Positions 1 through 25,598 of a DNA stretch of 25,598 nt are shown piece after piece. Position numbers and translations under genes: made by a program. This DNA comes from a virus (taxonomy: Duplodnaviria > Heunggongvirae > Uroviricota > Caudoviricetes), in the IMG/VR virus record IMGVR_UViG_2778261153_000008; one strand, given 5' to 3'. Below the pieces are notes generated by a model that ran no database searches, had not been told where the DNA came from, and saw only the letters and a list, made by a program, of their open reading frames with translations. Positions within the stretch are counted from its first letter, which is position 1. Each line of letters starts with the position of its first letter.

Positions 1-1053
1 TTACGGGGTAATGCCAACCGCTGCCGCCACTTTGTCGCCACTTGGCAGCGTTGCCAGAGGATTGAAACGGAGCGCCGTTTCCAGATGATCCGGTGCCAGA
101 TGTGCGTAACGCATAGTCATTTTTATATCGTGGTGTCCGAGAATTTTTTGTAAGGCCAGAATGTTTCCACCCGACATCATGAAGTGCGCCGCAAACGTAT
201 GGCGCAGAACGTGTGTGAGTTGACCGCGAGGGAGCACGATAGACGTTTTTTCCATCACGGATAAAAATTGAAAATAGCAGTCTGTGAAGAAATTGAACCC
301 ATCAAGCGCCATGATCTCTTCGTAAAGCTCTTTACTGATAGGGATGCTTCTGTTTTTCTTCCCCTTCGTTCTGACAAAGGTAATTCGGTATTTGGTCACC
401 TGTGAGCGAGTAAGATTTACGGCTTCACGCCAGCGTGCGCCTGTGCTTAAGCATATCTTAACTACCAGTGCCAGAATTGGGTCCTGACGTTTGCAATCAG
501 CCAGCAATTCAACAATCTGCTCATGGGTAAGCCATGCCATCTCTTTTTCTGCGATGGTGAATTTTCGCATGTTCTCCAGTGGGTTCGGATACGACCATTC
601 GCCCAGACGGGATAGTTCGCTAAAAACACTACTTAGATAGCTTTGCTCCAGGTTAATGGTGACCGGGCTTGCTCCTTTCTTCCATTTCTCGCTGAAGTAG
701 ATCTCGCCTGTCAGGCGTTTATCTCGATAGTGGGCAAACATTTTAGAGGTGAGATCGGTTGCAAGAGGATTGCCCAGAGCGTCAACCATCAACAGCAATT
801 TGTCATAGACATGCTGCCCAGCTGTCAGAGATTTACCATGTAGTTTGAACCATAGTTCAACCACGTCTTTCAGTGTTCGACGATCCACTGATTCACCCAG
901 CCAGGGCTTTGCTTCGGTTTCTTCCATCGTGTGACGCTCAAAAGCCAGAGCTTCGCCTTTGGTGGCGAATTGTTTACGCACACGACGTCCACTACGTCCG
1001 GCGGGGTAACATTCGCAAAGCCATTTTCCTGTGGTGAGTTTTCGTACTGCCAT
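1..1053 (-). CDS. int: Phage integrase, tyrosine recombinase (P2/186 family)
   Basis: 350-aa ORF; C-terminal tyrosine-recombinase signature (LRHTFAAHF ... GHHDIKMTMRYAHL); sits at prophage end beside the immunity region; stop codon at window positions 1-3 so the gene appears complete. Confidence 0.9.
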   Translation of the reverse strand: MAVRKLTTGKWLCECYPAGRSGRRVRKQFATKGEALAFERHTMEETEAKPWLGESVDRRTLKDVVELWFKLHGKSLTAGQHVYDKLLLMVDALGNPLATDLTSKMFAHYRDKRLTGEIYFSEKWKKGASPVTINLEQSYLSSVFSELSRLGEWSYPNPLENMRKFTIAEKEMAWLTHEQIVELLADCKRQDPILALVVKICLSTGARWREAVNLTRSQVTKYRITFVRTKGKKNRSIPISKELYEEIMALDGFNFFTDCYFQFLSVMEKTSIVLPRGQLTHVLRHTFAAHFMMSGGNILALQKILGHHDIKMTMRYAHLAPDHLETALRFNPLATLPSGDKVAAAVGITP

Positions 1054-1078
1054 AAAAAAGCCCTCATATCAGAGGGCT
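1054..1078 (-). terminator. Rho-independent terminator-like hairpin directly abutting the int start codon
   Basis: On the minus strand: A-GCCCTC-TGATAT-GAGGGC-TTTTTT followed immediately by the int ATG; GC-rich 6-7 bp stem, 6-nt loop, T6 tract. The 3' arm GAGGG doubles as the only plausible Shine-Dalgarno for int. Confidence 0.6.
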
Positions 1079-1136
1079 AAATTTAACTGTATATACAACC
1101 AGTAATCAATGTGTGATTACTATGAAACATACATTG

Positions 1137-2813
1137 CTAAGCAACATGCAGTTCATCGTTGGCGGAAGTTGCTGCTTTGCGCTCTTGCTCAATCGCCAGT
1201 GACTCTCTATATTCTTTCGCTTCCGCAAACATTGTCCATTGTGCGTTGATGTTCATATCTTCAATAACAGACTTAATTTCTTTAATATTTACGTTGAAAA
1301 ACTCTTTTCGTGAGTTAATTTTATTGACCTGTTTTTCGTTGAAGACTTTATGCAGATGATTTTCTAATGATGGTGCATCATCACTATAAATCATCGCATG
1401 AACATCGAACGAAAAAGGAACACTAGCATCACCGAGTTCACGAACACGATCAAGTGGTTCAAGGCGGCGTGTCATTCCAATTTTATATACATCTTCGCCA
1501 AATGAGCCAATATTACTAATTATATAAACGTGGCCTGATCTAGTTTGTTGAGCCATAGAAATAGCTCGTTGGTTTTTAGCTTCAGCTTCTTCATATTTTA
1601 ACTGTAGTTCAGCTATTTTTTGCTCTAAAGCTAAGCGTTGTTCTTCATTTGCAAGCATAAGCTCTTTTGTTGCTTTATTTATAGCTTGCTGAATAGCTTT
1701 CTCTTCTTTTTCAGCTTCTTTTATCGCTTTTTCATACTCCCTACGAGCTCTTTCCTCTTCACGAAGTTGTTCTTTAATCCTTCTTTGCTCTTCTTTTTCT
1801 TCGAGCATAATTTCATTAACTGCAACTCCCCATTTTAGCTCGTTGAGTCGAGCTTGAAGATAGATGTCACTTATTTTTGCGGACCTAAAGGCAGAACCAT
1901 TGTAATTTACAAGTTGAAACGCATCTTTTATCTCTTGGGAAAGTTTTCCAAAATTGTTGTGTTTGACTTTTGATAAAATACTGTCAACTCTTCCATTGAA
2001 GGCATCTAAAACAAAGTTGATAGCAGTATTACGCCTGTTTTGTTCGACATAATCACACGAAGCAGCTTTATTAGTTTTTATTAATGATTTTGTTAACTCC
2101 CTGGCTTTTTGTAATTCCTTACCTGCATCTGTAAACTCATAATTTTCTGCCAATTCATCGAGAACGCTACGGTTAGGGATGATCCATTCATCACCATAAC
2201 CTTCAATTTTATTTTTCATTGATTTGGCAACTGCTTCATATTTTTCTGCAAACTCTTTAGCTTCATATGCTGAACCAGCAATCTCTTTTGCTCTTTCTTC
2301 TGCATCGGAAATAATTTTCACTGCATTGTCATTAGCATTTGAGATCAGCTCATTTGCTTTACTATTGGCATTATCAAGACGTTCTTTAGCTTTCAGGCGT
2401 GCATCGCGAGCGTCTTTAGTAATTGCTATAGCTTCGCTATTAGCGTTGCTTATTTTTATCTGAGCTTGATAATTTGCTTCGTTTACTGTCTTAGCAGCCT
2501 TTATTTGGGCTTCTTCTATTTTTTGCCTGGCTATTGAGTCTGCATTTTTTATCTTATTCTCTGCTTCCATCACTGCGCTGTGCAATTCTACGTATTGCCA
2601 TAATGGCGCAGCTCGTCCTTCAAGCTCTGATAGATCTCGTACAGTCTGTGCTAATTCTTCTTGATTTTCTTTCAGTTGGTTGGAAAGGGCTATGTTGTTA
2701 GCTGTCAAGGTATTTATAGCCGCTTTATGTTTTTTGCTTTGCTTAAATAATATTACAGCTAGAATGGGGGCGAGAAATGCTAATAAGAATATAACGATGG
2801 AAAATGAATTCAT
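1137..2813 (-). CDS. Membrane-anchored coiled-coil protein with C-terminal T5orf172/MUG113 (GIY-YIG-like) nuclease domain; DUF4041-like architecture; cargo gene
   Basis: 558 aa. N-terminal hydrophobic helix (FSIVIFLLAFLAPILAVILF), long K/E/A-rich low-complexity middle region predicted coiled coil, C-terminal block GHVYIISNIGSFGEDVYKIGMTRRLEPLDRVRELGDASVPFSF...EFF matching the recalled T5orf172 consensus. Strongly AT-rich versus phage backbone. Start 20 nt downstream of cI stop, SD AAGGA; co-oriented with cI and int. Confidence 0.75.
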   Translation of the reverse strand: MNSFSIVIFLLAFLAPILAVILFKQSKKHKAAINTLTANNIALSNQLKENQEELAQTVRDLSELEGRAAPLWQYVELHSAVMEAENKIKNADSIARQKIEEAQIKAAKTVNEANYQAQIKISNANSEAIAITKDARDARLKAKERLDNANSKANELISNANDNAVKIISDAEERAKEIAGSAYEAKEFAEKYEAVAKSMKNKIEGYGDEWIIPNRSVLDELAENYEFTDAGKELQKARELTKSLIKTNKAASCDYVEQNRRNTAINFVLDAFNGRVDSILSKVKHNNFGKLSQEIKDAFQLVNYNGSAFRSAKISDIYLQARLNELKWGVAVNEIMLEEKEEQRRIKEQLREEERARREYEKAIKEAEKEEKAIQQAINKATKELMLANEEQRLALEQKIAELQLKYEEAEAKNQRAISMAQQTRSGHVYIISNIGSFGEDVYKIGMTRRLEPLDRVRELGDASVPFSFDVHAMIYSDDAPSLENHLHKVFNEKQVNKINSRKEFFNVNIKEIKSVIEDMNINAQWTMFAEAKEYRESLAIEQERKAATSANDELHVA

Positions 2814-2833
2814 TTTTAAATCCTTTTACTATA

Positions 2834-3430
2834 TTAATTTGAAACTATTGTACTTCTTATACAAGCAACTACTTCAATATCAGAAAATGCACATTCAAAG
2901 CTATTCTCTGTACTTGTAATTTTAATCATACCTTTTGGAAGCTTTGTGATTTTTCGAATGGAATAGGTTCCGTCGATGTTGATTAACCAGTGCCCATCAA
3001 GTACTTCAGAAAATTTTTGATCACAAATGTATGTGACGAGCCCATCCTGAATAACAATTGGTGATGAAAGATTTGCAGGAAGAAATGATGAATCGAAGAC
3101 ATATGAACCATCTTCAATCATTTTGCCTGCGGTAAGGCGAAACTTGGCAAGCTCTTCTGTAGCTGCTGTCAGCGAGCTTTGCTTAAGGCCTTGCCCGGTG
3201 GTTAACCATTTCAGTGAGGTTCCTGTTTCAAGAGCACATTGGATTATCCAGTCTGCAGGAAACGTATCCCGCAAATACCTGTTCGCCAGAGTGCTTTTTG
3301 ATACTTCCAAGTGATCAGCTAAAGCCTGTCGTGTCGTAAAGCCATAAGCTTCGACTAATCGCTCAATCGCAGCCTTACCACCTTTATTGGGATTTATTTT
3401 GATCTCATTTGGGTACTTTGATGTTGACAT
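2834..3430 (-). CDS. cI: Immunity repressor, phage 186 CI-like
   Basis: 198-aa ORF divergent from apl/cII; N-terminal HTH-like region (AYGFTTRQALADHLEVSKSTLANRYLR); size and position match 186 CI (about 190 aa). Start codon overlaps the -35 of the rightward promoter. Confidence 0.8.
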   Translation of the reverse strand: MSTSKYPNEIKINPNKGGKAAIERLVEAYGFTTRQALADHLEVSKSTLANRYLRDTFPADWIIQCALETGTSLKWLTTGQGLKQSSLTAATEELAKFRLTAGKMIEDGSYVFDSSFLPANLSSPIVIQDGLVTYICDQKFSEVLDGHWLINIDGTYSIRKITKLPKGMIKITSTENSFECAFSDIEVVACIRSTIVSN

Positions 3431-3477
3431 ATCTCTTTTGCGATCCTAGTATCAATTTTGTCCCCATTTGGGTACTT
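3406..3477. repeat. Two perfect 13-bp direct repeats CATTTGGGTACTT flanking the early promoter; candidate CI or Apl operator sites
   Basis: Copies at 3406-3418 and 3465-3477, 59 bp apart, bracketing the TTGACA/TAGTAT promoter; a degenerate third copy (TATTGGGAT) lies near 3385-3393. Confidence 0.45.
3424..3452 (+). promoter_or_regulatory. Putative early lytic promoter (pR-like) for apl/cII operon
   Basis: TTGACA (3424-3429), 17-bp spacer, TAGTAT (3447-3452); correctly placed about 70 bp upstream of the apl start codon in the cI-apl divergent region. Confidence 0.55.
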
Positions 3478-3525
3478 GTCACGATTACTACAGGCTCACC
3501 ACAAGCCAATAGGAGATGTTGCATC

Positions 3526-3747
3526 ATGACCCCTAACATTTCAATAACTCTGAATACGCCACATGTCACAATTGAGCGTTATAGCGAACTTACTGGTCTT
3601 TCTATCGACACCATCAACGATATGCTGGCTGATGGTCGCATCCCTCGCCATCGCCTTCGGAAAGACAAGAAAAGAGAAAAGGTAATGATCAACCTTGCTG
3701 CTCTTACCGTTGATGCACTTACTGATTGCAATGTTGTATTCAACTAG
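3526..3747 (+). CDS. apl: Excisionase/transcriptional regulator, Apl/Cox-like
   Basis: 73-aa product from ATG 3526 preceded by SD AGGAG (3511-3515); first rightward gene opposite cI; HTH-like segment [21 protein letters not shown]. The ORF-track start at 3409 is an upstream extension with no SD and overlaps cI. Confidence 0.7.
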
Positions 3748-3779
3748 TTCCATTTTGGGATACATCAGGGGTGTCGACT

Positions 3780-4289
3780 ATGTTTGATTACCAAGTTTCC
3801 AAACATCCACATTTTGACGAAGCCTGTCGTGCATTCGCACTGCGCCACAACCTGGTGCAACTGGCAGAACGTGCAGGCATGAATGTACAGATTCTGCGGA
3901 ACAAGCTGAACCCAGCTCAACCTCATTTATTAACCGCACCAGAAATCTGGTTGCTTACCGATCTGACTGAAGATTCAACGCTGGTAGATGGCTTTCTGGC
4001 ACAGATTCACTGCCTGCCATGTGTACCGATTAATGAGGTGGCAAAAGAGAAACTGCCGCATTATGTCATGAGTGCAACTGCAGAGATCGGGCGTGTTGCT
4101 GCAGGTGCGGTATCCGGCGATGTAAAAACCAGTGCAGGTCGTCGTGATGCTATCAGCAGCATTAACTCTGTAACACGGCTGATGGCGCTGGCCGCTGTTT
4201 CATTGCAGGCCCGTTTACAGGCTAATCCTGCGATGGCGAGTGCAGTTGATACCGTTACTGGCCTCGGTGCTTCATTCGGTTTGCTGTGA
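3780..4289 (+). CDS. cII: CII-like transcriptional activator (phage 186 CII family)
   Basis: 169-aa product from ATG 3780 ([19 protein letters not shown]...); size and position after apl match 186 CII; recalled sequence similarity. Confidence 0.7.
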
Positions 4290-4296
4290 GGTGCTT

Positions 4297-4497
4297 ATGC
4301 TTACGAAAGAACCATCATTTGCATCGCTGCTGGTTAAACAAAGCCCGGCAATGCACTACGGTCACGGCTGGATCATGGGTGAGGATGGTAAACGCTGGCA
4401 TCCGTGCCGTTCACAAGATGAATTGCTGGCAGAACTATCTACGAAAAAACGGGGGAACAAATGGCTATTGAAGGCGCTGCGGCGACTGTTCCATTAA
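4297..4497 (+). CDS. Small early protein, hypothetical (possibly Fil-like)
   Basis: 66-aa product from ATG 4297 with SD GAGGTG (4288-4293); in 186 the gene after cII is fil, but I cannot verify similarity. Confidence 0.45.
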   Translation: MLTKEPSFASLLVKQSPAMHYGHGWIMGEDGKRWHPCRSQDELLAELSTKKRGNKWLLKALRRLFH

Positions 4498-4802
4498 GCC
4501 CCGGTGAACGCCTGAATGGACTTAATCATATTGCGGAGTTAAGGGCGAAAGTTTTTGGTCTTAATATTGAGTCAGAGCTTGAGCGGTTTATTAAAGATAT
4601 GCGTGATCCACGGGATATTAATAGCGAACAAAATAAACGGGCACTGGCTGCCATATTCTTTATGGCAAAAATTCCAGCTGAACGTCATAGCATCAGCATT
4701 AATGAGCTGACCACTGACGAAAAGCGGGAGTTGATTAAAGCAATGAATCATTTTCGTGCAGTGGTGAGCTTATTTCCCAGACGGTTAACCATGCCGAATT
4801 AA
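4461..4802 (+). CDS. Hypothetical early protein
   Basis: 113-aa ORF, SD GGGGGA 5 nt upstream of ATG 4461; overlaps the preceding ORF by 37 nt; embedded in the early operon. Confidence 0.5.
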   Translation: MAIEGAAATVPLSPGERLNGLNHIAELRAKVFGLNIESELERFIKDMRDPRDINSEQNKRALAAIFFMAKIPAERHSISINELTTDEKRELIKAMNHFRAVVSLFPRRLTMPN

Positions 4803-4869
4803 CCAACTAATGAAATTAATGGCGTAAACCCGCCGGGCATCCCTTTATCTAAATTCAGGAGAATTGATT

Positions 4870-5103
4870 ATGCGTAATATTGAAACCCTCACGACTAAAA
4901 CCGGACCGGATGACGCAGGGCTTAATATTTTACTGACAGAGGCTCGTCTGGAAGAACGCCGGGCAAGGGCTGAAGCAATGGCAGCTCGCCTTGATAGTCT
5001 GGCGTGTCATATTACATCCCGCCAGCTAAACCACGTCGAAGCGGCAGAACTGCTGCGTGTGACTGCTGAAGCAATCCAGAACGAAGCGCAGGAGATCCAC
5101 TAA
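4870..5103 (+). CDS. Hypothetical early protein
   Basis: ATG 4870 with SD AGGAG (4857-4861); 77 aa, charged/helical; stop overlaps the next gene start (TAATG). Confidence 0.5.
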   Translation: MRNIETLTTKTGPDDAGLNILLTEARLEERRARAEAMAARLDSLACHITSRQLNHVEAAELLRVTAEAIQNEAQEIH

Positions 5104-5330
5104 TGGCTGATGCAATGGATCTCGTACAGCAGCGCGTTGAAGAAGAACGCCAGCGCCATATCCGTGCTGCCCGTGCCAAAACACCGGGCGTGTCACGCGT
5201 ACTTTGCATTGAATGTGAAGCGCCAATTCCGCCAGCACGACGCCGCGCCATTCCGGGAGTGCAGCTTTGCATTACCTGTCAGGAAATCGCAGAACTGAAA
5301 GGCAAACATTACAACGGAGGTGCTGTATGA
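5103..5330 (+). CDS. TraR/DksA-family C4 zinc-finger protein
   Basis: 75 aa with CxxC-(17)-CxxC pattern (CIECEAP...CITCQE), typical of small phage TraR/DksA-like zinc fingers; translationally coupled to flanking genes. Confidence 0.7.
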   Translation: MADAMDLVQQRVEEERQRHIRAARAKTPGVSRVLCIECEAPIPPARRRAIPGVQLCITCQEIAELKGKHYNGGAV

Positions 5331-6175
5331 GCACCATCTTGAAATGGGCGGGAAATAAAACGGCCATTATGGCAGAACTGAAAAAATACCTTCCTGCTGG
5401 CCCGCGACTGGTTGAACCTTTCGCGGGTTCCTGTGCAGTGATGATGGAGACGGATTACCCCAGCTATCTTGTTGCGGATATTAATCCTGATTTAATCAAC
5501 CTCTATAAAAAGGTTGCCGCTGATTGTGAATCGTTTATATCTCGCGCCAGAGTTTTATTTGAGAACGCAAACAGGGAGATGGCTTATTACAACATAAGGC
5601 AGGAGTTTAATTACTCAACTGAAATTACTGATTTCATGAAAGCAGTATATTTCCTGTATCTCAATCGTCACGGTTACCGTGGTTTATGTCGCTATAACAA
5701 GAGCGGGCATTTCAACATTCCCTACGGTAATTATAAAAATCCGTATTTCCCTGAAAAAGAAATTCGTGCATTTGCAGAAAAAGCCCAGCGGGCAACATTT
5801 ATCTGCGCCAGCTTCGATGAAACGCTGGCAATGTTGCACGCGGGGGATGTTGTGTATTGCGATCCGCCTTATGACGGTACGTTTTCCGGTTATCACACTG
5901 ACGGCTTCACTGAAGATGACCAGTATCACCTGGCATCCGTTCTTGAACATCGGTCATCAGAAGGACATCCGGTCATTGTTTCTAACAGTGACACATCCCT
6001 GATCCGCTCGCTGTATCGCAATTTCACTCACCACTACATCAAGGCAAAACGCAGCATTGGCGTGTCAGCTGGCGAGAGTAAATCTGCAACAGAAATCATT
6101 GCCACCAAATCAGCTGGGTGGTTTGGTGTCGATTTTGCCAGCGGCTCTGACCGTACCGTTGAGGTACGCGCATGA
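5327..6175 (+). CDS. dam: DNA adenine methyltransferase (Dam-like, N6-adenine MTase)
   Basis: ATG 5327 (overlaps preceding stop as ATGA); N-terminal AdoMet motif (KWAGNK ... EPFAGSCAV) and catalytic DPPY motif ([11 protein letters not shown]). Confidence 0.85.
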
Positions 6176-7182
6176 ATGCTATCGATCCGCGTTGCTTTGC
6201 CTCAGGCACCATTAACGTCATCACTACTTCTGGTGGCAAAGATAGTCTCGCTCAATGGCTAAGAGCCATTGAAAACGATGTTCCGCATATTTCTGTATTT
6301 GCCGATACGGGTCATGAACATCCACAGACAATAGAATATCTGGATTATCTGGAATCAAAGCTGGGCAAGATTATTCGCGTCAAAGCGGATTTCACACGCC
6401 AGATAGAAGGGAAACGTAAATTCATTGCGGAAAAGTGGACCATTTCTCTCGTTGAGGAATGTGGTATGTCGACAGATGAGGCTGAGGAACGTATTTACCG
6501 GGCACTGGAAATCCTTAAACCAACCGGCGTTCCGTTTCTTGATTTGTGCATGTGGAAAGGTCGCTTCCCTTCAACAAAAGCTCGTTTCTGCACTTTTGAA
6601 CTGAAACATGAACCAATACGTACACAGGTAATCGATCCAGCTCTGGATGAATACGATGAGGTAATCAGTTGGCAAGGAGTCCGGGGGCAGGAATCACCGG
6701 AACGTGCATTGTTGCCTGAGTGGGAGGACGATGCAGACAATACTCTGGGGCTGCATGTTTATCGTCCGATCCTTAATTGGCTGCATGAGGATGTGTTTGC
6801 TATTGCCAAACGTCATGGCATTAAGCCTAACCCCCTTTATATGCAGGGATGCAGTCGTGTCGGTTGTATGCCATGCATTCATGCTCGCAAGTCAGAACTT
6901 GGAGAGATTTTCCAACGCTGGCCAGAAGAAATCCGCCGAGTGGCTGAGTGGGAAAGACTGGTTGCGGAATGTTCAAGACGTGGCAATTCAACGTTCTTTC
7001 CATCCACGCATGATCCGCGCCGTGCTGAAAAACGGATCGAAGTCATAACTGTTGATGCTTATGGCATTGAAACTTATCGGGACTGGGCCTTAACGACTCG
7101 GGGCGGTATGCAGTTTGACCTGCTGGCAGGCATGAATGATAAAGCGGTGTGCAGCAGTGTATATGCAGGAGTCTGTGAGTGA
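6172..7182 (+). CDS. PP-loop ATP pyrophosphatase, phosphoadenosine-phosphosulfate (PAPS) reductase-like family protein
   Basis: 336 aa; PP-loop motif SGGKDS near N-terminus; C-terminal cysteine cluster (CSRVGCMPC); start overlaps dam stop (ATGA), stop overlaps gene A start. Confidence 0.65.
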
Positions 7183-9620
7183 CAGAGATCAGCACAGGCC
7201 GTCTTGCCGATCCATTTGTCAGTGTAACTTCCGGTAGCATTGAGAATTCTGCCGGGGGTTATTCGTGGAATTTACCTAAGAAAGCCATTAACCCTTATCT
7301 GGACCCGGCGGAAGTTGCGCCGGTTTCTGCGCTTTCAAACCTGATCACTCTGTACGCTACCGATAACGAGCAGGAACAACTGCGCCGCGAGGCACTGAGT
7401 GATCAGGTCTGGGAGCGTTATTTCTTTAATGAATCCCGTGATCCTGTCCAGCGCGAAATGGAGCAGGATAAGCTCATTAGCCGGGCAAAGTTGGCGCATG
7501 AGCAGCAGCGTTTTAACCCGGACATGGTCATTCTGGCAGACGTCAGCGCCCAGCCCTCCCATATCAGCAAGCCGCTGATGCAACGTATTGAATACTTCAG
7601 CAGCCTGGGCAGGCCAAAGGCTTATTCCCGCTATTTACGTGAGACGATTAAGCCATGTCTGGAACGACTGGAGCATGTACGCGACAGCCAGCTATCTGCA
7701 TCTTTTCGTTTTATGGCAAGCCATGTAGGGCTGGACGACCTGCTGATTCTGCCTGAAATGAGTCAGGATCAGGTGAAACGCCTGTCTACCCTTGTCGCTG
7801 CGCATATGAGCATGTGCCTTGATGCAGCTTGTGGTGATTTGTATGCCACCGATGACGTTAAGCCAGAAGAAATCCGCAAGACATGGGAAAAGGTGGCAGC
7901 GGAAACCCTGCGTCTGGATGTCATCCCGCCTGCGTTTGAGCAACTCCGCCGGAAAAGAAACCGCCGTAAACCCGTGCCCTATGAACTCATTCCGGGTTCG
8001 CTGGCGCGTATGTTGTGCGCCGACTGGTGGTACCGGAAATTATGGAAGATGCGTTGCGAATGGCGGGAAGAGCAGTTGCGTGCTGTCTGCCTGGTCAGCA
8101 AAAAAGCATCTCCCTATGTCAGCTATGAAGCCGTGATGCATAAACGTGAGCAGCGCCGTAAGTCGCTGGAGTTTTTTCGTTCTCATGAACTGGTGAACGA
8201 AGACGGCGACACGCTGGACATGGAGGATGTGGTAAACGCCAGCAGCAGCAACCCTGCGCATCGCCGCAATGAGATGATGGCCTGTGTTAAAGGCCTGGAG
8301 CTTATCGCGGAAATGCGTGGTGACTGCGCCGTTTTCTACACCATTACCTGTCCGTCACGTTTCCATTCCACGCTCAATAACGGCAGACCAAACCCAACCT
8401 GGACAAATGCGACGGTAAGACAAAGCAGCGATTATCTGGTCGGCATGTTTGCTGCATTTCGTAAGGCGATGCACAAAGCCGGGTTGCGCTGGTATGGCGT
8501 GCGGGTGGCTGAGCCGCATCATGACGGTACGGTTCACTGGCACCTGTTGTGTTTCATGCGCAAAAAAGACCGCCGTGCCATTACTGCATTGTTGCGTAAG
8601 TTTGCCATCCGTGAAGACCGCGAGGAACTGGGTAATAACACTGGTCCACGCTTTAAATCTGAGCTGATAAACCCGCGCAAAGGAACACCGACAAGCTACA
8701 TCGCGAAATACATTAGTAAGAACATTGACGGGCGTGGTCTGGCTGGCGAGATCAGCAAGGAAACGGGTAAATCCCTGCGTGATAACGCTGAATACGTTAA
8801 TGCCTGGGCGTCTCTGCATCGTGTTCAGCAATTCCGCTTCTTTGGTATTCCGGGGCGTCAGGCTTACCGTGAACTGCGATTGCTGGCTGGTCAGGCGGCA
8901 AGGCAACAGGGCGACAAAAAAGCAGGTGCGCCGGTACTGGATAACCCGCGCCTTGATGCCATCCTGGCTGCTGCTGATGCTGGTTGTTTTGCCACTTACA
9001 TCATGAAGCAGGGTGGTGTACTGGTTCCCCGCAAATATCACCTCATCAGAACTGCTTATGAAATTAACGAAGAGCCGACCGCCTATGGCGATCACGGCAT
9101 TCGTATTTATGGCATCTGGTCACCCATTGCAGAGGGCAAGATCTGCACTCATGCAGTGAAGTGGAAAATGGTTCGTAAAGCCGTTGACGTTCAGGAGGCG
9201 GTAGCCGACCAGGGCGCTTGCGCCCCTTGGACTCGTGGCAATAACTGTCCCCTTGCTGAAAATTTGAACCAACAGGAGAAAGATAAATCAGCTGATGGGG
9301 ACCCCAGAACGGACATTACCCGCATGGATGACAAGGTGTTGCACGATTACCTGCACAGTATGAACAAAAAGGAGCGCCGGGAACTGGCTGCAAGGTTACG
9401 TCTGGTGAAACCGAAACGGCGTAGAGACTACAAACAGCGAATTACAGACCATCAACGACAGCATCTCGTCTATGAACTGAAATCCAGAGGATTTGATGGC
9501 AGCGAGAAAGAGGTCGATTTACTCCTTCGCGGCGGCAGTATTCCGTCAGGAGCAGGCCTGCGTATCTTCTATCGGAACCAGCGTTTGCAGGAAGATGATA
9601 AGTGGCGGAACCTGTATTAA
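7179..9620 (+). CDS. A: Replication initiation protein (P2 gpA-like rolling-circle endonuclease)
   Basis: 813 aa, GTG start with SD AGGAG (7167-7171); HUH-type motif ([12 protein letters not shown]) and downstream tyrosine motif ([10 protein letters not shown]); large early gene in the position of P2 gene A. Confidence 0.85.
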
Positions 9621-9713
9621 TTACGCTGGTTAACAATTCGTGCTCTTAATAATACCAGGTATATCAGGCTGATAAGCGTAAAAAAAACGTTTTACATCAG
9701 TAAGATTATTATA

Positions 9714-9733
9714 TACTGTAAATATAAACAGTG
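9714..9733. promoter_or_regulatory. LexA operator (SOS box) at promoter of downstream operon
   Basis: TACTGTAAATATAAACAGTG matches the CTGT-N8-ACAG LexA consensus (TACTGTATATATATACAGTA) at 17 of 20 positions; lies 40 bp upstream of ATG 9774 in an AT-rich intergenic region; a weaker half-site (ACAG at 9743-9746) follows. Confidence 0.75.
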
Positions 9734-9773
9734 GTTATGTATACAGTATTGCTTTGGTGTCATAGGAGGAAAG

Positions 9774-9962
9774 ATGCAGGACTATTTTTTGGAGTCTTTG
9801 AAGCTCCAGCGCATTGATTTTTTTCTTAAGCTTGTAGCGGCTAGTGAGTGTAGTGATGAAGAGAAGGGGCTGGCTTTGCAGTGGGTTTCTGAACTGACTG
9901 ATGAACTCATGGCAAAAATCAGAAGCCACGAATACAACCGCTCAATGGATGTCATCAGCTGA
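9774..9962 (+). CDS. Small SOS-operon protein, hypothetical (possibly N-terminal part of a Tum-like antirepressor)
   Basis: 62-aa ORF with strong SD (AGGAGG) 5 nt upstream; first gene after the LexA box; overlaps the upstream open frame of the DinI-like gene. Confidence 0.5.
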   Translation: MQDYFLESLKLQRIDFFLKLVAASECSDEEKGLALQWVSELTDELMAKIRSHEYNRSMDVIS

Positions 9963-9972
9963 GGTGACTTTT

Positions 9973-10206
9973 ATGCGCATTGAAATAATGATCGATAAAG
10001 AGCAGAAGATTAGCCAGTCTACCCTGGACGCCCTTGAATCCGAGCTTTACCGCAATCTGCGCCCCCTGTATCCCAAAACGGTAATCCGTATCCGTAAAGG
10101 TAGCTCTAACGGTGTGGAACTGACCGGACTGCAACTGGACGAAGAAAGAAAACAAGTGATGAAAATTATGCAGAAGGTGTGGGAAGACGACAGCTGGCTG
10201 CATTGA
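9973..10206 (+). CDS. DinI-like protein (Tum C-terminal-like, SOS-inducible)
   Basis: 77-aa product MRIEIMIDKEQ...KVWEDDSWLH resembles E. coli DinI in length and in N-terminal MRIE and C-terminal W-x-DD-W motifs; SD GAGGTG 6 nt upstream; downstream of LexA box. Confidence 0.7.
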   Translation: MRIEIMIDKEQKISQSTLDALESELYRNLRPLYPKTVIRIRKGSSNGVELTGLQLDEERKQVMKIMQKVWEDDSWLH

Positions 10207-10260
10207 TTTTGTCAATAGACGCTTGTTTTTACTAATCAAAAAGGGTTACATATGAGTGAG

Positions 10261-10293
10261 AGGCGATGTCAATCAGATATCGCCTTGTTTTTT
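10261..10293 (+). terminator. Intrinsic terminator/attenuator-like hairpin
   Basis: A-GGCGAT (10261-10267) pairs with ATCGCC-T (10279-10285), 11-nt loop, followed by TTGTTTTTTG; lies after the DinI-like gene and 27 nt before the lipoprotein start. Confidence 0.45.
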
Positions 10294-10319
10294 GTCAAGA
10301 AAAGAATAATAGGCTAAAA

Positions 10320-10997
10320 ATGAAAATTAATAATGTAGCGTTACCAATATCTCTTGCTGTAATCCTAACTGGTTGCGTGCCACATGCTTCTAACCGAAAT
10401 ATCACTGCTATTGAAGTGGTGAAGCCTGCTATTGGGCAAAGTGCTACCGCCTACATGGGCGATCCCATTATCACATCTGCTACTGGATTTAAAACGGACG
10501 TACTAGAACTTGGTGCGGCTAATGGTGCATTGTCTTCTATCGCTGCTGGTACATATTGCAGTGAGGGGAATGGAATTTACCGCAATTATCATAACCCTCA
10601 AGCTGTTGCGTTAAAAAATCTCTATGGGCAAATCGGTAACTATGTTGATTATGTTAGTTACGATGCTGCAAAAAATGAGATATCACCGCCAAATGGTACT
10701 TCTTATACTGCATCAGAAATTTCTATCAAACGTGTTCCTGATGGGCTGTGTCGAGTTAGTAACTCATTGGTTAAGACTATCGAATACAATGGAAATGCAG
10801 GCGGTGTAATGAAGTTCACCTATCGTGAATTTGCAAACGATATGGCTCGTGCAGCATTTACAACAGATTTTTCTGTAGATTCTAAGGGAAGTGACGTTAT
10901 CGCTTACAAAGGTGCCAAGTTCAAAGTGAACAAGGCTGATAACTCGTCTATTTCTTATACAATTATTTCTGGCTTTGACAAGGCTGTCACGTTCTAG
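10320..10997 (+). CDS. Lipoprotein, function unknown (cargo/moron)
   Basis: Product begins MKINNVALPISLAVILTGC: basic N-terminus, hydrophobic core, lipobox LTGC. Remainder Gly/Ser/Asn/Tyr-rich beta-type sequence. AT-rich relative to backbone. The ORF-track start at 10266 would add 18 non-signal residues and overlaps the hairpin. Confidence 0.7.
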   Translation: MKINNVALPISLAVILTGCVPHASNRNITAIEVVKPAIGQSATAYMGDPIITSATGFKTDVLELGAANGALSSIAAGTYCSEGNGIYRNYHNPQAVALKNLYGQIGNYVDYVSYDAAKNEISPPNGTSYTASEISIKRVPDGLCRVSNSLVKTIEYNGNAGGVMKFTYREFANDMARAAFTTDFSVDSKGSDVIAYKGAKFKVNKADNSSISYTIISGFDKAVTF

Positions 10998-11100
10998 GTT
11001 TCACGCTTACTTAGTATGTTACGATTTTGCACATTCTGCATAAACGCGCATGTCTATGCTGCATGAGATCGCATGATCGTTTGAGGATCTTTTGTGTTAA

Positions 11101-11126
11101 GGCCCGCCAGTTCTGGCGGGCTTTTG
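11101..11126 (+). terminator. Rho-independent terminator
   Basis: GCCCGCCA-gttc-TGGCGGGC stem-loop followed by TTTT; 104 bp downstream of lipoprotein stop, immediately left of putative cos. Confidence 0.7.
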
Positions 11127-11170
11127 CGTAGATCATGCAGGTGCATGAAAACCACTACATAAAGCGGGCA

Positions 11171-11189
11171 GGCGTGGCGGGGATACGAG
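11171..11189. other. Putative cohesive end site (cos) of the P2/186-like genome
   Basis: GGCGTGGCGGGGATACGAG; the first 13 nt match my recollection of the 19-nt cohesive ends of 186 (GGCGTGGCGGGGAAAGCAT) and P2 (GGCGAGGCGGGGAAAGCAC). Lies between the genome-right-end genes and the portal/terminase genes as expected. Confidence 0.5.
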
Positions 11190-11483
11190 CGCGCATTTAT
11201 ATAGAGTTAGAGAAATTTCTCTATGCTGCATGTCATAGTCATATTTGCTGATGCAAATGAAGGTTACAACTAAGGAGAACAACATAATTACCGTAAATAT
11301 AATTTACAATCGTTATTGTTTTGTAGGGTTATGAGATTGACGCATTATATTGAGATCAAGTTCAAAATTATATGTCAATTCATCAATTTTGACGTTTCTT
11401 TCGTTAAATAAATCGCATATCCTATCGTTATGATAAATCGGTCATGATATTTTTTAATTTAACGGAAGTAATCGGAGATTCTA

Positions 11484-13202
11484 ATGCATCCTGTTTTAAA
11501 CAGATATATTCAAGATTTAGCGAGTACACTTGATATAGCAGAAGAGCAAGATAAGTTATTTGAATATTTTTGCAATTTTGTTGTTACATCCAAAAATTAT
11601 CTTGGCCGATTTAATCCTGTCGACATTACGACTCAAGAAGATGATGCATCAATTGATGGCTTGGCGGTTCTAATAGATAGTGAGATCATACTTACCCAAG
11701 AGGACGCTATTGCTGCTTTCGAAAGTCACAAATCGTCATTGCCTGTAGAACTTTTGGTTATTCAAGCTAAATCAGGAGAAACCTTCCGGAAAGATAAAAT
11801 AGCTAATTTTAATTTGGGGTTGCAGGATTTATTCAGTTTGGACCCGAAACTACCTAATGGAAAGTACAATAAAGAAATTATAAAAATATTAAGTGTTATC
11901 ATCGATAATTTGAGAAAAGTCAAGAATAAACTTCCTGATATAAAGGTTTATTTTTGCACAAGCGGTGTCTATTCAAAAGAAAGAGAAATAGAAGCTTCTT
12001 TTAAGATTATTGAAGAAACTTGTAAAGGGGCAGATCTGTTTGGTGAAGTTGAGGTTAGCCCATTAGGTCGTAGCGAACTAATGAAATTGTGGCGCTCAAT
12101 AACCGAAAAAAATGAGGCTACTTTAGAGTTCATAAATTTCATGGGCATCAATGAAATGCCTGGAATTCCTCAAGCATATATTACAACAATAAAAGCTAAG
12201 GAGTTTATTGAAAAAGTTGCGATGGATGAAGATCGCAAAATTCGAGAGGAGGTATTTGATGAAAATGTACGAGCATTTTTAGGTGAAGACAATCCTGTTA
12301 ATAAGGATATTACTAAAACCTTGCAATCTGAAAAATCGAATCAATTCGCTGTGCTAAACAATGGCGTGACCATCATTGCTCCTGAGGTAACCCTCACCCC
12401 AAGTAAAAAAACTATACACATAGCTAATTATCAGATCATTAACGGTTGCCAAACTACCAATACACTATTCAATAACTTTGGAATATTAACGGATGCGACT
12501 GAACTCGTTGTTAAGTTTATACAATCTAGCGAGGTTGATGTCGCAATTGACATTGTAACTGCTACCAATAATCAATCCAAAGTGGAGAGTTCTAGCTTTT
12601 ATGCGTTGAGAGAAAAGTCTAGGATGATACATAAATTTTTTGAAATACAACGGGATGTTGAAGGCAGGGAACACCTTTATTTTGAAAGAAGAGAAGGTGA
12701 GTATCGTGGTAAATCTATCAAAACTACAAAAATATATGACATTGTTGAATTGGCAAGGTGTTTCTTATCTGTATTCAAACAGAGGCCACACAATGCCGCT
12801 ATGTATGTGAAAAAAGTATTAAATGAAAGTAAGGATATATGTTATTTAGATACTGATAACGAATATGCATATTACACAGCAGCTTATATTTGTTATAAAT
12901 ACAGCACGTTGATTAATGGTCGTAAAGCTAATGCTAAGAAATATAATAAGCTACGTTGGCATATTGCTATGCTTTATCCTTGGGTTGTGAGCAAAAGTAT
13001 GGATGTTCCTGCGCCCAATTCAGGAAAGATAACTCCTTTTTGTAATAATATCATGAAAACATTGACAACTGATGAATACGTGGAGAATTTCAAAGAATGT
13101 CAAAAAATAATTGATAAACTTCCATTCCCTACAGATGACCAGATCAAACGAGGAAAATACACCAGCGATCTGAGAACGATGGCAGCAGAACATTTTAAAT
13201 AA
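11484..13202 (+). CDS. Hypothetical 572-aa protein; candidate single-gene anti-phage defence/abortive-infection protein (family unverified, possibly AIPR-like)
   Basis: Long uninterrupted ORF with SD GGAG 6 nt before ATG; very AT-rich compared with flanking packaging genes; own AT-rich upstream region; followed by strong hairpin terminator. No Walker A motif; conserved-looking block ANYQIINGCQTTNT; located between cos and portal gene. Confidence 0.6.
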   Translation: MHPVLNRYIQDLASTLDIAEEQDKLFEYFCNFVVTSKNYLGRFNPVDITTQEDDASIDGLAVLIDSEIILTQEDAIAAFESHKSSLPVELLVIQAKSGETFRKDKIANFNLGLQDLFSLDPKLPNGKYNKEIIKILSVIIDNLRKVKNKLPDIKVYFCTSGVYSKEREIEASFKIIEETCKGADLFGEVEVSPLGRSELMKLWRSITEKNEATLEFINFMGINEMPGIPQAYITTIKAKEFIEKVAMDEDRKIREEVFDENVRAFLGEDNPVNKDITKTLQSEKSNQFAVLNNGVTIIAPEVTLTPSKKTIHIANYQIINGCQTTNTLFNNFGILTDATELVVKFIQSSEVDVAIDIVTATNNQSKVESSSFYALREKSRMIHKFFEIQRDVEGREHLYFERREGEYRGKSIKTTKIYDIVELARCFLSVFKQRPHNAAMYVKKVLNESKDICYLDTDNEYAYYTAAYICYKYSTLINGRKANAKKYNKLRWHIAMLYPWVVSKSMDVPAPNSGKITPFCNNIMKTLTTDEYVENFKECQKIIDKLPFPTDDQIKRGKYTSDLRTMAAEHFK

Positions 13203-13210
13203 TATATACA

Positions 13211-13231
13211 GCCTCTCAAGGTTTGAGAGGC
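13211..13231. terminator. Bidirectional rho-independent terminator between convergent genes
   Basis: GCCTCTCAA-ggt-TTGAGAGGC perfect 9-bp stem, T/A-rich flanks on both sides (ATTGTTATTT on plus; TGTATATATT on minus); lies between the 572-aa gene stop and the Q stop. Confidence 0.8.
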
Positions 13232-13239
13232 ATTGTTAT

Positions 13240-14271
13240 TTAATCTAATATGTACTCGCTAAATTTTATTACTGATTCTCCTACAAATTCATTTAATCCT
13301 TTCACTCTTTCTTTAAGTGGGATGAGTTCGTTACGTACAAATACTTTACTGGCCTTCTCAATATCACCAAAACCGCCAACATTTTGCGGGATGATACCCA
13401 TGAGTTGTGGCGGCACGCGGTGCGCAGCCATCATGTCGTCACGGCTCACGTTTTTGATATTCAGAAACTCATCCTTCGCTGCGACTTCTGACAACGGGAT
13501 AATCTGAAGCCCGTCCTTTTTGCCGTTCGGCGAGTACATAAACAGGTTACGGAAGTTGCCTGGTCCTTTGGCGCTTTTCATTGCGTTGCGGAGGTTGTTT
13601 ACATCCTCCTGGTTCTGTGCGGCATCGGTCATGTACATGATGAAGCCTGCATGACTACCGTTAATGTAATACTTGCGGCGGAACAGCGTGGCGGATTCGT
13701 TGAGCAGGGCTGACGGAATGGCAGAAAGATAACCGGGCAGGCCGTAGATCTCCTGGTTGATGTCCGGTTCCATCAGATGAAAGATGCTGCCTTTCGTGAA
13801 CTGATACGGCTGGGTTGTCATACCGTATTGCACAAACCAGTAGGTATCTAGGTCTAACCCGCGTCGGGTGTATTTTGCCAGCGCAGGCTCAAGGGCGATA
13901 ACTTCACCGAATCGGTTCGTGCGTTTCTCCAGGTAGGCGTTACCAAATACCAGATAGTCCTGCACAAAACGCGAAAAAGCCTGCTGGCTGAGCAGCGGGT
14001 GAGGGATGTAGGTACTGGTCAGAATATTGCATTTCACCGCAATCGGTGAGCTGTGATGCACGGCGGCGCGAAAGGTGCGCGCCAGCCCGTCAAAACTCAC
14101 TGGCGGCTCATACCATCGATCTGTCTGTACGCATTCCACATAGTCCAGCAGTTCACGGCGGTCCAGAACAGGAACGGGATCGCCGAAGCTGAATGCTTCG
14201 GCTGAAGTCTGGCTTTTATGCTGGATCTGATTCATCGCAGCTACGCGGTTTTTTTTACTCTTTCCCATCAA
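13240..14271 (-). CDS. Q: Portal protein (P2 gpQ-like)
   Basis: 343 aa (P2 Q is about 344 aa); leftward gene immediately preceding the large terminase subunit, as in P2; 4-nt overlap with P. Confidence 0.85.
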   Translation of the reverse strand: MMGKSKKNRVAAMNQIQHKSQTSAEAFSFGDPVPVLDRRELLDYVECVQTDRWYEPPVSFDGLARTFRAAVHHSSPIAVKCNILTSTYIPHPLLSQQAFSRFVQDYLVFGNAYLEKRTNRFGEVIALEPALAKYTRRGLDLDTYWFVQYGMTTQPYQFTKGSIFHLMEPDINQEIYGLPGYLSAIPSALLNESATLFRRKYYINGSHAGFIMYMTDAAQNQEDVNNLRNAMKSAKGPGNFRNLFMYSPNGKKDGLQIIPLSEVAAKDEFLNIKNVSRDDMMAAHRVPPQLMGIIPQNVGGFGDIEKASKVFVRNELIPLKERVKGLNEFVGESVIKFSEYILD

Positions 14272-24480: not shown

Positions 24481-25598
24481 GCACAAAATTTTATACCCTG
24501 CTGACGGATATTGGCGCGGCGAAACTTGCCAGCGCCGCCGCGCTCGGTGTGCCTTTAAAAATTACCCATATGGCGGTCGGCGATGGCGGCGGAACATTGC
24601 CAACGCCGGACGCAAAGCAGACAGCATTAGTAAATGAGAAACGCCGGGCTGCGCTGAATATGCTCTATATCGACCCGCAGAACAGCAGCCAGATTATTGC
24701 TGAACAGGTGATCCCTGAAAATGAGGGTGGTTGGTGGATACGTGAAGTGGGTCTGTTTGATGAGTCCGGGGCATTGATTGCCGTAGGCAACTGCCCGGAA
24801 AGCTATAAGCCGCAACTGGCTGAAGGCAGCGGGCGCACCCAGACCGTGCGCATGGTGCTGATTACCAGCAGCACGGACAATATCACCCTGAAAATCGACC
24901 CTGCCGTCGTGCTGGCAACCCGCAAGTATGTGGATGACAAGGTACTGGAGCTGAAGGTGTTCGTGGATGATAAGATGGCAAAACATCTTGCCGCACCGGA
25001 CCCGCATTCACAGTATGCACCCAAAGAAAGCCCGACATTGACCGGAACACCCAAAGCGCCAACGCCAGCGGAGGGGAATAACACCACGCAGATTGCGACC
25101 ACCGCGTTTGTTCAGGCGGCACTGATGGCCCTTATTAATGGTGCGCCAGCCACACTGGATACGCTGAAAGAAATTGCCGCTGCCATTAATAATGACCCGA
25201 AATTCAGTACCACCATTAACAATGCGCTGGCACTGAAAGCGCCGCTGTTAAGTCCGGCACTCACCGGAACGCCAACAGCCCCCACTGCCGCACAGTCAGT
25301 TAACAATACACAGATTGCCACCACGGCTTTTGTGAAATCGGCAATTGCGGCAATGGTGGGGTCTGCACCTGCTGCACTGGATACACTGAACGAACTGGCT
25401 GCGGCGCTGGGGAATGACCCGAACTTTGCCACGACAATGCTTAATGCGCTGGCAGGTAAACAACCGCTGGACAATACGCTGACTAATTTGAGTGGAAAGG
25501 ATGTAGCTGGTCTTCTCGCATACCTTGGTTTGGGAGAAGCGGCAAAACGGGATGTGGGGACAGGGGAAAATCAGATACCGGACATGGCCTCTTTTGCC
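24477..25598 (+). CDS. H: Tail fibre protein H (P2 gpH-like), 3'-truncated by window end
   Basis: Open frame from ATG 24477 to window end with no stop; N-terminus MSTKFYTLLTDIGAAKLASAAALGVPLKITHMAVGDGGG closely resembles recalled P2 gpH N-terminus; contains the characteristic NNTQIATTAFV...NDPNFATT repeat modules. Confidence 0.85.
   Translation, partial: MSTKFYTLLTDIGAAKLASAAALGVPLKITHMAVGDGGGTLPTPDAKQTALVNEKRRAALNMLYIDPQNSSQIIAEQVIPENEGGWWIREVGLFDESGALIAVGNCPESYKPQLAEGSGRTQTVRMVLITSSTDNITLKIDPAVVLATRKYVDDKVLELKVFVDDKMAKHLAAPDPHSQYAPKESPTLTGTPKAPTPAEGNNTTQIATTAFVQAALMALINGAPATLDTLKEIAAAINNDPKFSTTINNALALKAPLLSPALTGTPTAPTAAQSVNNTQIATTAFVKSAIAAMVGSAPAALDTLNELAAALGNDPNFATTMLNALAGKQPLDNTLTNLSGKDVAGLLAYLGLGEAAKRDVGTGENQIPDMASFA
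25032..25480 (+). repeat. Tandem duplicated module (period about 222 bp, 74 aa) inside tail-fibre gene H
   Basis: Two consecutive copies of LTGTP.AP....NNTQIATTAFV....A...GAPA.LDTL.E.AAA..NDP.F.TT..NALA.K.PL; explains the spurious repeat-containing minus-strand ORFs at 24803-25474. Confidence 0.8.

Follow-up and report, generated by a model that had tools for sequence, protein, structure and literature searches.

The stretch analysed here is the virus record IMGVR_UViG_2778261153_000008 from IMG/VR (25,598 nucleotides, referred to as a whole as the window), and it is an E. coli prophage of the P2/186 family, whose nearest relatives are Fels-2-like phages and Klebsiella 4LV2017-like phages. 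The backbone follows the order of phage 186, with int, the gene for a 186-type CI repressor, cII, a Dam methylase gene, a homologue of 186 orf84 that resembles phosphoadenosine phosphosulfate (PAPS) reductase genes, and gene A (7179-9620), after which come a LexA-boxed tum/DinI operon and then Q, P, O, N, M, L and onward. Three AT-rich segments are set into this backbone: a module of cI and a homologue of the defence nuclease SNIPE between int and apl/cII, a lipoprotein gene between tum and the cohesive-end site cos, and a gene of the AbiU defence family between cos and the portal gene Q. For each of the three, there are prophages with 96-99% identity elsewhere that lack it or have something else in its place, with sharp and recurrent junctions. 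The expectation of the original prediction that all three are accessory was therefore borne out, none of them being a syntenic core gene, and an invariance of the three slots across P2/186-like prophages is contradicted by the sampled relatives.

The segments had first been picked out by eye as AT-rich against a GC-balanced to GC-rich backbone, and the sliding-window GC content, the GC content of third codon positions (GC3) and the codon usage all agree with this. In the sliding window, GC falls to 0.35-0.39 at 1001-3250 and to 0.32-0.37 at 11001-13250, with a shallower dip (0.40-0.45) at 9251-11000, and the late genes lie at 0.52-0.64. Taken by segment, GC is 0.374 at 1137-3422, 0.395 at 10205-11047 and 0.336 at 11195-13324, compared with 0.533 in the remaining window. 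The genes concerned are those for the SNIPE homologue (1137-2813; GC 0.369, GC3 0.272), CI (2834-3430; GC 0.399, GC3 0.327), the lipoprotein (10320-10997; GC 0.407, GC3 0.314) and AbiU (11484-13202; GC 0.346, GC3 0.290), and the GC3 of each lies below that of every one of the 26 other genes (mean 0.581, standard deviation 0.102, range 0.39-0.75 with a minimum of 0.386; Mann-Whitney U=0, p=3.6e-5). With respect to synonymous codon usage, the same genes rank with the most deviant.

The first slot and its left anchor contain the following features:

1-1053, minus strand: integrase, a P2/186-type tyrosine recombinase (Pfam Int_N and Phage_integrase), left anchor of slot 1
1059-1078, minus strand: terminator-like hairpin with T-run directly upstream of the int ATG, in a conserved int-proximal spacer, with a putative role in int expression
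1137-3422, minus strand: swappable AT-rich 'immunity + defence' module of cI and SNIPE, delimited by the junctions in relatives
1137-2813, minus strand: SNIPE / PD-lambda-1 homologue, 558 amino acids (aa) (PADLOC PD-Lambda-1; Pfam DUF4041, T5orf172 and MUG113)
2834-3430, minus strand: 186-type CI repressor, 198 aa (Pfam Phage_CI_repr and Phage_CI_C)

Positions 1-1136 are 95-98% identical in relatives that diverge directly beyond, and in five relatives with other cargo and other CI alleles the boundaries of the divergent segment lie at 1116-1136 and 3417-3478, which makes the cargo together with cI the unit that is exchanged. The original prediction had described an insert between cI and int at 1137-2813; its AT-rich and accessory character stood, but the simple insertion had to be given up, as the relatives' junctions show a swap of the module 1137-3422, which includes cI. 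The CI protein is 33% identical to 186 CI and 45-54% identical to the CI proteins of relatives with other cargo. Outside 1137-3422, phage 4LV2017 is ~96% identical, and within this segment it has another open reading frame (ORF) and another CI; E. coli prophages with 96-98% identical integrases occupy the same chromosomal site. The alternative cargos comprise Old (PADLOC 1e-233), an AriA/OLD-like ATPase, PDC-M11A/B with a DUF3644 protein, and 63-aa or unassigned ORFs; all of them lie on the cI/int strand, all are AT-rich (0.34-0.39), and each comes with a different CI. The CI repressors that accompany other int-cI cargos have ~300-313 aa (L002:2903-3844, L013:7439-8377, L014:7634-8569, L016:7837-8736) and align twice with the 198-aa CI, with its N-terminal helix-turn-helix region at ~20-100 and over its full length at ~110-310, so that they appear to carry a duplicated N-terminal DNA-binding domain.

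Among complete E. coli genomes, the cI allele, the SNIPE gene and the combined segment were each found in 165 at a coverage of >=80%, out of ~1,135 that have this integrase type. From these identical counts it follows that SNIPE is completely linked to one CI allele in E. coli complete genomes, a linkage that we did not find stated in the available portions of the literature on P2-related hotspots (PMC9122126, PMC13586616). In 186-like prophages, the defence cargo of the int-cI slot may be inherited as one unit with the immunity specificity of the CI allele. The SNIPE gene begins 20 bp past cI on the same strand, and from this position and strand we infer that it is most likely co-transcribed with the repressor in lysogens. 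The T-run behind the GC-rich hairpin at 1059-1078 ends exactly at the int start codon (…TTTTTATGGC), the spacer with this hairpin is common to 4LV2017 and the E. coli relatives, and the hairpin may dampen or regulate the expression of int from the cI transcript.

The SNIPE homologue matches the PADLOC profiles PDLC03976 (E=4.7e-120, profile positions 35-481 of 491) and PDLC03977 (E=2.1e-116), is 94-100% identical across the 165 complete genomes, and identical genes bear the RefSeq label 'SNIPE associated domain-containing protein'. Its sole hydrophobic segment is a transmembrane (TM) helix at residues 4-23 (SIVIFLLAFLAPILAVILF; mean Kyte-Doolittle value 2.99), which is followed by KQSKKHK. A coiled coil lies between this helix and DUF4041 (PF13250; residues 267-322, E=3.1e-12), and the GIY-YIG/T5orf172 region at 427-520 (T5orf172 9.4e-17, MUG113 1.6e-19) contains the nuclease-domain motifs VYI(429), YKIG(443), RR(449) and LE(484) with the putative catalytic residues, the Glu being a candidate counterpart of SNIPE E414. 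A search of solved structures returned no sequence relatives. The protein thus has the architecture of SNIPE/PD-lambda-1 (Vassallo et al. 2022), with a single N-terminal TM helix, a central DUF4041 and a predicted C-terminal GIY-YIG/T5orf172 nuclease domain, but unlike the profile of ~490 residues it has 558 aa, with an N-terminal coiled-coil region that is ~70-80 aa longer. Experiments have established SNIPE as a membrane-bound nuclease that cleaves phage DNA while it is being injected; it acts on siphoviruses and not on myoviruses (10.1101/2025.11.03.685801). By homology, the protein encoded here would be an inner-membrane-anchored GIY-YIG nuclease that cuts incoming siphovirus DNA at injection, and such a siphovirus-directed activity would spare the resident myovirus.

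The region from cos to the portal gene contains the third slot:

11048-11194, plus strand: conserved cos block of 147 bp (GC 0.54), 82-99% identical in all relatives
11171-11189, plus strand: 19-nt cos, GGCGTGGCGGGGATACGAG (186: GGCGTGGCGGGGAAAGCAT; P2: GGCGAGGCGGGGAAAGCAC), with cleavage positions assigned by analogy
11195-13324, plus strand: slot 3, the AbiU cassette, in which an AT-rich 5' region precedes the AbiU gene, and a bidirectional terminator and the final ~28 codons of Q follow it
11484-13202, plus strand: AbiU / AIPR-family single-gene defence protein, 572 aa (PADLOC, Pfam and PHROGs)
13211-13231, no strand assigned: bidirectional terminator-like hairpin between the convergent AbiU and Q genes (hairpin prediction)
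13240-14271, minus strand: portal protein Q, the right anchor of slot 3, identified by its alignment with P2 Q and 186 W

The cos site was located as a 186-like variant by reading the sequence and with a regular expression; the exact P2 cos, with up to 3 mismatches allowed, has no match in the window. Compared with the annotated cohesive ends of 186 and P2, 14-15 of the 19 positions match, and the surrounding block, which also contains TGCAT(G/T) motifs common with P2 and 186 and a t95b-like terminator hairpin (11099-11124), can be aligned with both. As had been proposed, cos is flanked by the lipoprotein gene and the 572-aa gene, and the ORF coordinates given were correct. The spacer between these genes (10998-11483) had been assigned as a whole to the lipoprotein locus, and this holds for the AT-richness of the locus but not for its extent: the spacer is a composite of the cos block and of 11195-11483 (GC 0.30), which belongs to the AbiU cassette and travels with it, for example in a relative without the lipoprotein gene (L008).

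In all eight examined relatives with other cargo (8/8), the left junction of slot 3 lies at 11194, 5 bp past the 19-nt cos, which implies that cos and the sequence to its left contain everything required by the terminase; this nucleotide-sharp junction of a hypervariable slot so close to a cohesive end may be of interest to specialists. On the other side, homology returns at 13287-13337, within the last 16-33 codons of Q, and the C-terminus of Q differs between otherwise 92%-identical portals, co-varying with the defence cargo. The distance from cos to the portal stop codon is 2,050 bp here versus ~190 bp in P2 and 186. The slot has at least 8 different fillings, which in this small and non-random sample are rich in defence genes: retron St85 in 4LV2017 and BL21(DE3), AbiU-type AIPR genes of other lineages in Fels-2 and Ecol_316, bSEFIR (2e-104) in strain H7, a PDC-M68A-like HNH cassette in ATCC 8739, and genes that we could not assign in HS and KP12.

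The 572-aa gene had been regarded as an orphan. Its product is a full-length AbiU/AIPR protein, as evidenced by the PADLOC AbiU profile (E=9.3e-107, residues 3-565 versus profile positions 4-532 of 537), Pfam AIPR (E=4.6e-40) and phrog_1841 (E=5.5e-103), and it has hundreds of homologues. It is the only substantial ORF between cos and Q, and the same single-gene cassette is present in other assemblies; a 76% identical homologue does have a 232-aa neighbour. The cassette DNA was found in 0 of 5,426 complete E. coli genomes and in none of the sequenced phages, even with a distant-mode search, and an exact 56-mer scan of species-representative genomes gave no match. The exact protein occurs in 295 index blocks of (draft) assemblies, in this slot in every place shown, and one prophage that carries it has a 100% E. 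coli flank, on which the assignment of the host rests. More distant homologues reside in a further P2-like cos-Q slot, at the psu/delta-int hotspot in P4-like satellites and on a chromosome of 63% GC, and the homologues are AT-rich everywhere, even within that chromosome. Two prophage remnants both keep the defence cassette: in one (L007, GCA_946061555.1), a truncated Q is fused to ogr and to the ybjL-rimK region of the chromosome, and in the other (L012, GCA_053703535.1), a deletion extends from Q/P to the tail genes U and D.

AbiU is described as a single-gene system that delays phage transcription, a phenotype known only from the lactococcal prototype (Dai et al. 2001, as cited in the available part of PMC13064643), and as a predicted nuclease (PMC3632139). 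The full-length match to PADLOC AbiU and Pfam AIPR and the single-gene layout agree with lactococcal AbiU (AbiUi)/AIPR; unlike the latter, the gene in the window is a gamma-proteobacterial prophage version and has no AbiUii-like partner gene. A search of solved structures for sequence relatives gave none for AbiU either. We envisage that the AbiU/AIPR gene stands alone here, that it brings along an AT-rich upstream region and a terminator of its own, and that its product would by homology be a predicted nuclease of the abortive-infection type.

The second slot lies between tum and the cos block:

9716-9731, plus strand: LexA-box-like site CTGTAAATATAAACAG, which precedes orf9774 and tum and corresponds to 186 p95
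9973-10206, plus strand: Tum/DinI-like gene, 77 aa (Pfam DinI), left anchor of slot 2
10205-11047, plus strand: slot 2, the lipoprotein cassette, positional equivalent of 186 orf97 and of P2 orf91-tin-old
10260-10286, plus strand: intrinsic-terminator-like hairpin that separates tum from the lipoprotein gene and corresponds to 186 t95a
10320-10997, plus strand: lipoprotein, 225 aa, phrog_1353, with lipobox LTG-C19, invariant C80/C144 and an all-beta predicted fold

The LexA-box pattern CTGT-N8-ACAG has its single occurrence in the window at 9716-9731, and the Tum/DinI-like protein is 41% identical to the C-terminus of 186 Tum (E=8e-24). In place of the lipoprotein cassette, L008 has 84 bp and BL21(DE3) has an unrelated stretch of 786 bp, so that the slot is seen in three states with identical junctions at 10204/5 and 11047/8. 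The cassette is present in 50 complete E. coli genomes versus ~1,281 with the A-tum-cos backbone. P2 tin and old lie between A and cos, and the A-to-cos locus had thus rightly been equated with the P2 tin/old position.

The lipoprotein has a signal peptide with a lipobox (MKINNVALPISLAVILTG followed by C) and carries V and no Asp at position +2, and it is predicted to be sorted to the outer membrane by the Lol system. Across 22 homologues, G18 and C19 are invariant, as are the two further cysteines C80 and C144. It matches phrog_1353, a PHROGs family of unknown function, while searches of Pfam, NCBIfam and PADLOC (E<=0.01) gave no match and thus no known-defence model. An AlphaFold2 model predicts, with reasonable confidence, an all-beta fold (predicted local distance difference test, pLDDT, 80), and a Foldseek search with this model against BFVD gave no match at E<=0.001. 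A profile search collected 2,434 cluster representatives at E<=0.001 with a median length of 227 aa, and the family is not restricted to phages. The lipobox is present in 110 of the 141 remote homologues (among P0148-P0294), with Asp at +2 in none, and 10 remote members that were sampled had no Pfam or NCBIfam domain. The family is therefore a candidate for a new curated family, and as a large uncurated family that is carried by many phages it is the component of the window with some potential for novelty. An origin shared with 186 Orf97, suggested by equal ORF length (243 aa in both cases) and position, was considered and rejected (BLASTP E=4.5; phrog_1353 versus phrog_3403).

Like 186 orf97 and P2 tin/old, the lipoprotein gene lies downstream of tum or A and upstream of cos, and the 186 record annotates orf97 as 'blocks 186 infection'; unlike the cytoplasmic Orf97 and the tin/old products, the protein is a secreted lipoprotein without a match to PADLOC models, Old included. 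Our best guess, which is tentative and on its own rather unlikely to be right, is a surface-acting phage-exclusion or receptor-masking factor that is expressed in lysogens and/or on SOS induction; from its place in the outer membrane, such a factor might hide a receptor or prevent injection, by analogy to T5 Llp or Cor. It is quite possible that the lipoprotein is instead a host-fitness or virulence moron of the envelope or serum-resistance type without anti-phage function, which would agree with the missing PADLOC match, the predicted outer-membrane lipoprotein signal, the large family that extends beyond phages, and the high conservation across Klebsiella, Salmonella and E. coli prophages (99-100% identity in Klebsiella and Salmonella P2-like phages, including STM2726 of Fels-2). 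On the other hand, the same slot holds exclusion genes in P2 (tin, old) and 186 (orf97), and homologues are found at phage moron positions beside toxin-antitoxin or Abi-like genes: siphophages of Acinetobacter and Moraxella carry distant ones as morons within their tail modules, and another is situated at the margin of a Klebsiella island, with putAbiC and a resolvase as neighbours. Neither of these points is decisive.

Taken together, we propose that the conserved backbone has three slots for exchangeable cargo, that the AT-rich DNA in each of them was acquired horizontally, and that the cargo would be swapped by recombination between conserved flanks, namely int and apl/cII for slot 1, tum and the cos block for slot 2, and the cos block and Q for slot 3. 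As a whole, we regard this explanation as very probable. Several points nevertheless weigh against parts of it. The longer N-terminal coiled coil of the SNIPE homologue means that its specificity, that is, the dependence on ManYZ or on the tape measure protein, may differ; the identity of AbiU to the lactococcal prototype is at the family level, as judged by hidden Markov models; and the hairpin at 10260-10286 in front of the lipoprotein gene makes SOS co-transcription uncertain. As no informative sequence or fold match was obtained for the lipoprotein in the searches described above, its role is a guess, and its near-invariance across Klebsiella, Salmonella and E. coli phages is more like that of a lineage-conserved accessory gene than of a rapidly swapped cassette.

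With regard to function, the SNIPE-like and AbiU-like genes could have decayed or been repurposed and no longer defend the host, and an N-terminal region longer than the profile, as in the SNIPE homologue, could be read in this way. We consider this improbable, as both ORFs are intact and are matched end to end by the family models, and as the TM helix and the GIY-YIG motifs are present. Moreover, the identical AbiU in 295 index blocks and the 94-100% identity of SNIPE in 165 complete genomes imply purifying selection, and pseudogenes are reported to be rare in P2 hotspots in the available part of PMC13586616.

With regard to origin, the AT-rich segments could also be ancestral backbone genes that have a low GC content due to functional or regulatory constraint, such as H-NS silencing of genes that are expressed in lysogeny. 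It fits this idea that cI is a genuine phage gene and yet matches the cargo in AT-richness, and that the lipoprotein gene is 99-100% conserved in many Klebsiella and Salmonella P2-like phages, Fels-2 among them. However, the absence of the segments or their replacement by unrelated genes with sharp junctions in 96-99% identical prophages largely refutes it; phages 186, P2 and Fels-2 each lack one or more of the segments, and homologues of AbiU and of the lipoprotein reside in unrelated elements, where an AT-rich composition is kept even in a 63% GC chromosome. An ancestral origin is therefore very unlikely.

The spacer around cos also contains an exact direct repeat:

11053-11065, plus strand: copy 1 of the 13-bp direct repeat (TCTATGCTGCATG), in the cos block, conserved in KP12 and 4LV2017
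11220-11232, plus strand: copy 2, 26 bp into the AbiU cassette, present only with this cassette allele

The two copies lie 167 bp apart and bracket cos, only ~0.5% of random 486-bp regions hold such a repeat, and copy 1 is 5 bp from the right junction of the lipoprotein slot, so that att-like or integron-like boundaries at which the cargo moves by site-specific recombination came into question. Such a mechanism is the least credible of the alternatives, since the copies enclose the conserved cos block and no cassette, copy 2 is missing from every other cos-Q cassette, even from an AbiU cassette with 72% identity that occupies this slot elsewhere, and copy 1 overlaps TGCAT(G/T) motifs that are conserved in the cos regions of P2 and 186. 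Chance alone accounts for about a dozen further 13-mer pairs within the window, the right edge of slot 3 is not sharp but spread over 13287-13337, as homologous recombination would give, and the 13-mer is not found at the edges of the varied slot 2 and slot 3 cassettes among the 10 relatives examined. The suggestion that the repeats mark cassette boundaries was consequently rejected. Copy 1 is more likely a part of the terminase recognition region, and the repeat itself may stem from acquisition microhomology, be a vestige or be due to chance.

The positions of the slots have precedents. P2 hotspots were described in the E. coli pangenome (Vassallo et al. 2022, 10.1101/2022.05.12.491691), and a 'highly variable locus' of P2-like phages had been noted by Odegrip et al. 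(2006). In its available part, the study of Rousset et al. (2022, PMC9122126) describes a cos-proximal gpA-gpQ hotspot of P2-like phages with 1,650 gene arrangements in E. coli and notes an int-cI hotspot in K139-like Vibrio P2-related phages, and the available part of Moura de Sousa et al. (2026, PMC13586616) includes an integrase-primase hotspot with 8% of systems in its list of P2 hotspots and names AbiU among the systems found in both P2 and P4. The cos-Q locus had been thought to lie outside the classical position, but the published gpA-gpQ hotspot covers both sides of cos, and it is thus not a new kind of position. As in that hotspot, slots 2 and 3 lie between A and Q beside cos and have a variable content that includes AbiU, a retron and bSEFIR; unlike in its description, two slots are present here, which are parted by the conserved 147-bp cos block, and the hypervariable slot is on the Q side of cos and begins at cos+5 bp, whereas P2 tin and old are on the A side. 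Slot 1 resembles the K139-like int-cI and the integrase-primase hotspots in that the cargo lies between int and cI on the strand of the lysogenic operon, and the alternative cargos are defence genes (Old, AriA-like, PDC-M11, SNIPE); it differs from the descriptions of int-repressor hotspots in that the cargo co-varies with the CI allele, the exchanged unit being 'immunity + defence'.

Fels-2 (NC_010463) has the same layout at the cos end, with A, a small ORF, DinI/TumB, the lipoprotein (STM2726, 99% identical), cos, an AbiU-type AIPR gene and Q; it is unlike the window in that its AbiU is only ~30% identical and its CI gene abuts int without SNIPE, and in 186 int likewise abuts cI. The hotspots, both defence families and the lipoprotein-cos-AbiU layout were thus already on record, and our analysis adds small refinements, in that the cos block separates two slots, a junction lies at cos+5 bp, the C-terminus of Q hitch-hikes with the cassette, and cI is linked to the cargo.

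Apart from the three segments, a fourth variable slot is located between the Dam methylase gene and A (6103-7274), which a selection by composition, as in the original prediction, missed because it is not AT-rich (GC 0.48). The PAPS-reductase-like gene in this slot, which is the 186 orf84 homologue (72% nucleotide identity to 186) and has weak SspD/BrxP/DndC-like matches, is missing in KP12, 4LV2017 and Fels-2; in ATCC 8739 and L008, it is replaced by the gene for an unrelated 273-aa protein without a PADLOC match. The phage record closest to the window is L001 (OM835953.1, 'Klebsiella phage KP12 clone KP12_3'), with 96.5% identity at 87% coverage. This P2/186-like sequence is filed under Vequintavirinae as 'partial sequence', and it is probably a co-assembled prophage and not part of the lytic phage. 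At the end of the window, one and the same segment of the P2 tail-fibre gene H (P2 13499-13714) is matched by two adjacent stretches, 25029-25231 and 25251-25466, which points to an internal tandem repeat in the tail-fibre region.

In conclusion, the window contributes little novelty but illustrates cleanly how P2/186-like prophages act as exchangeable carriers of anti-phage genes, and the linkage of SNIPE with a CI allele couples superinfection immunity with heterotypic defence in one exchangeable module.

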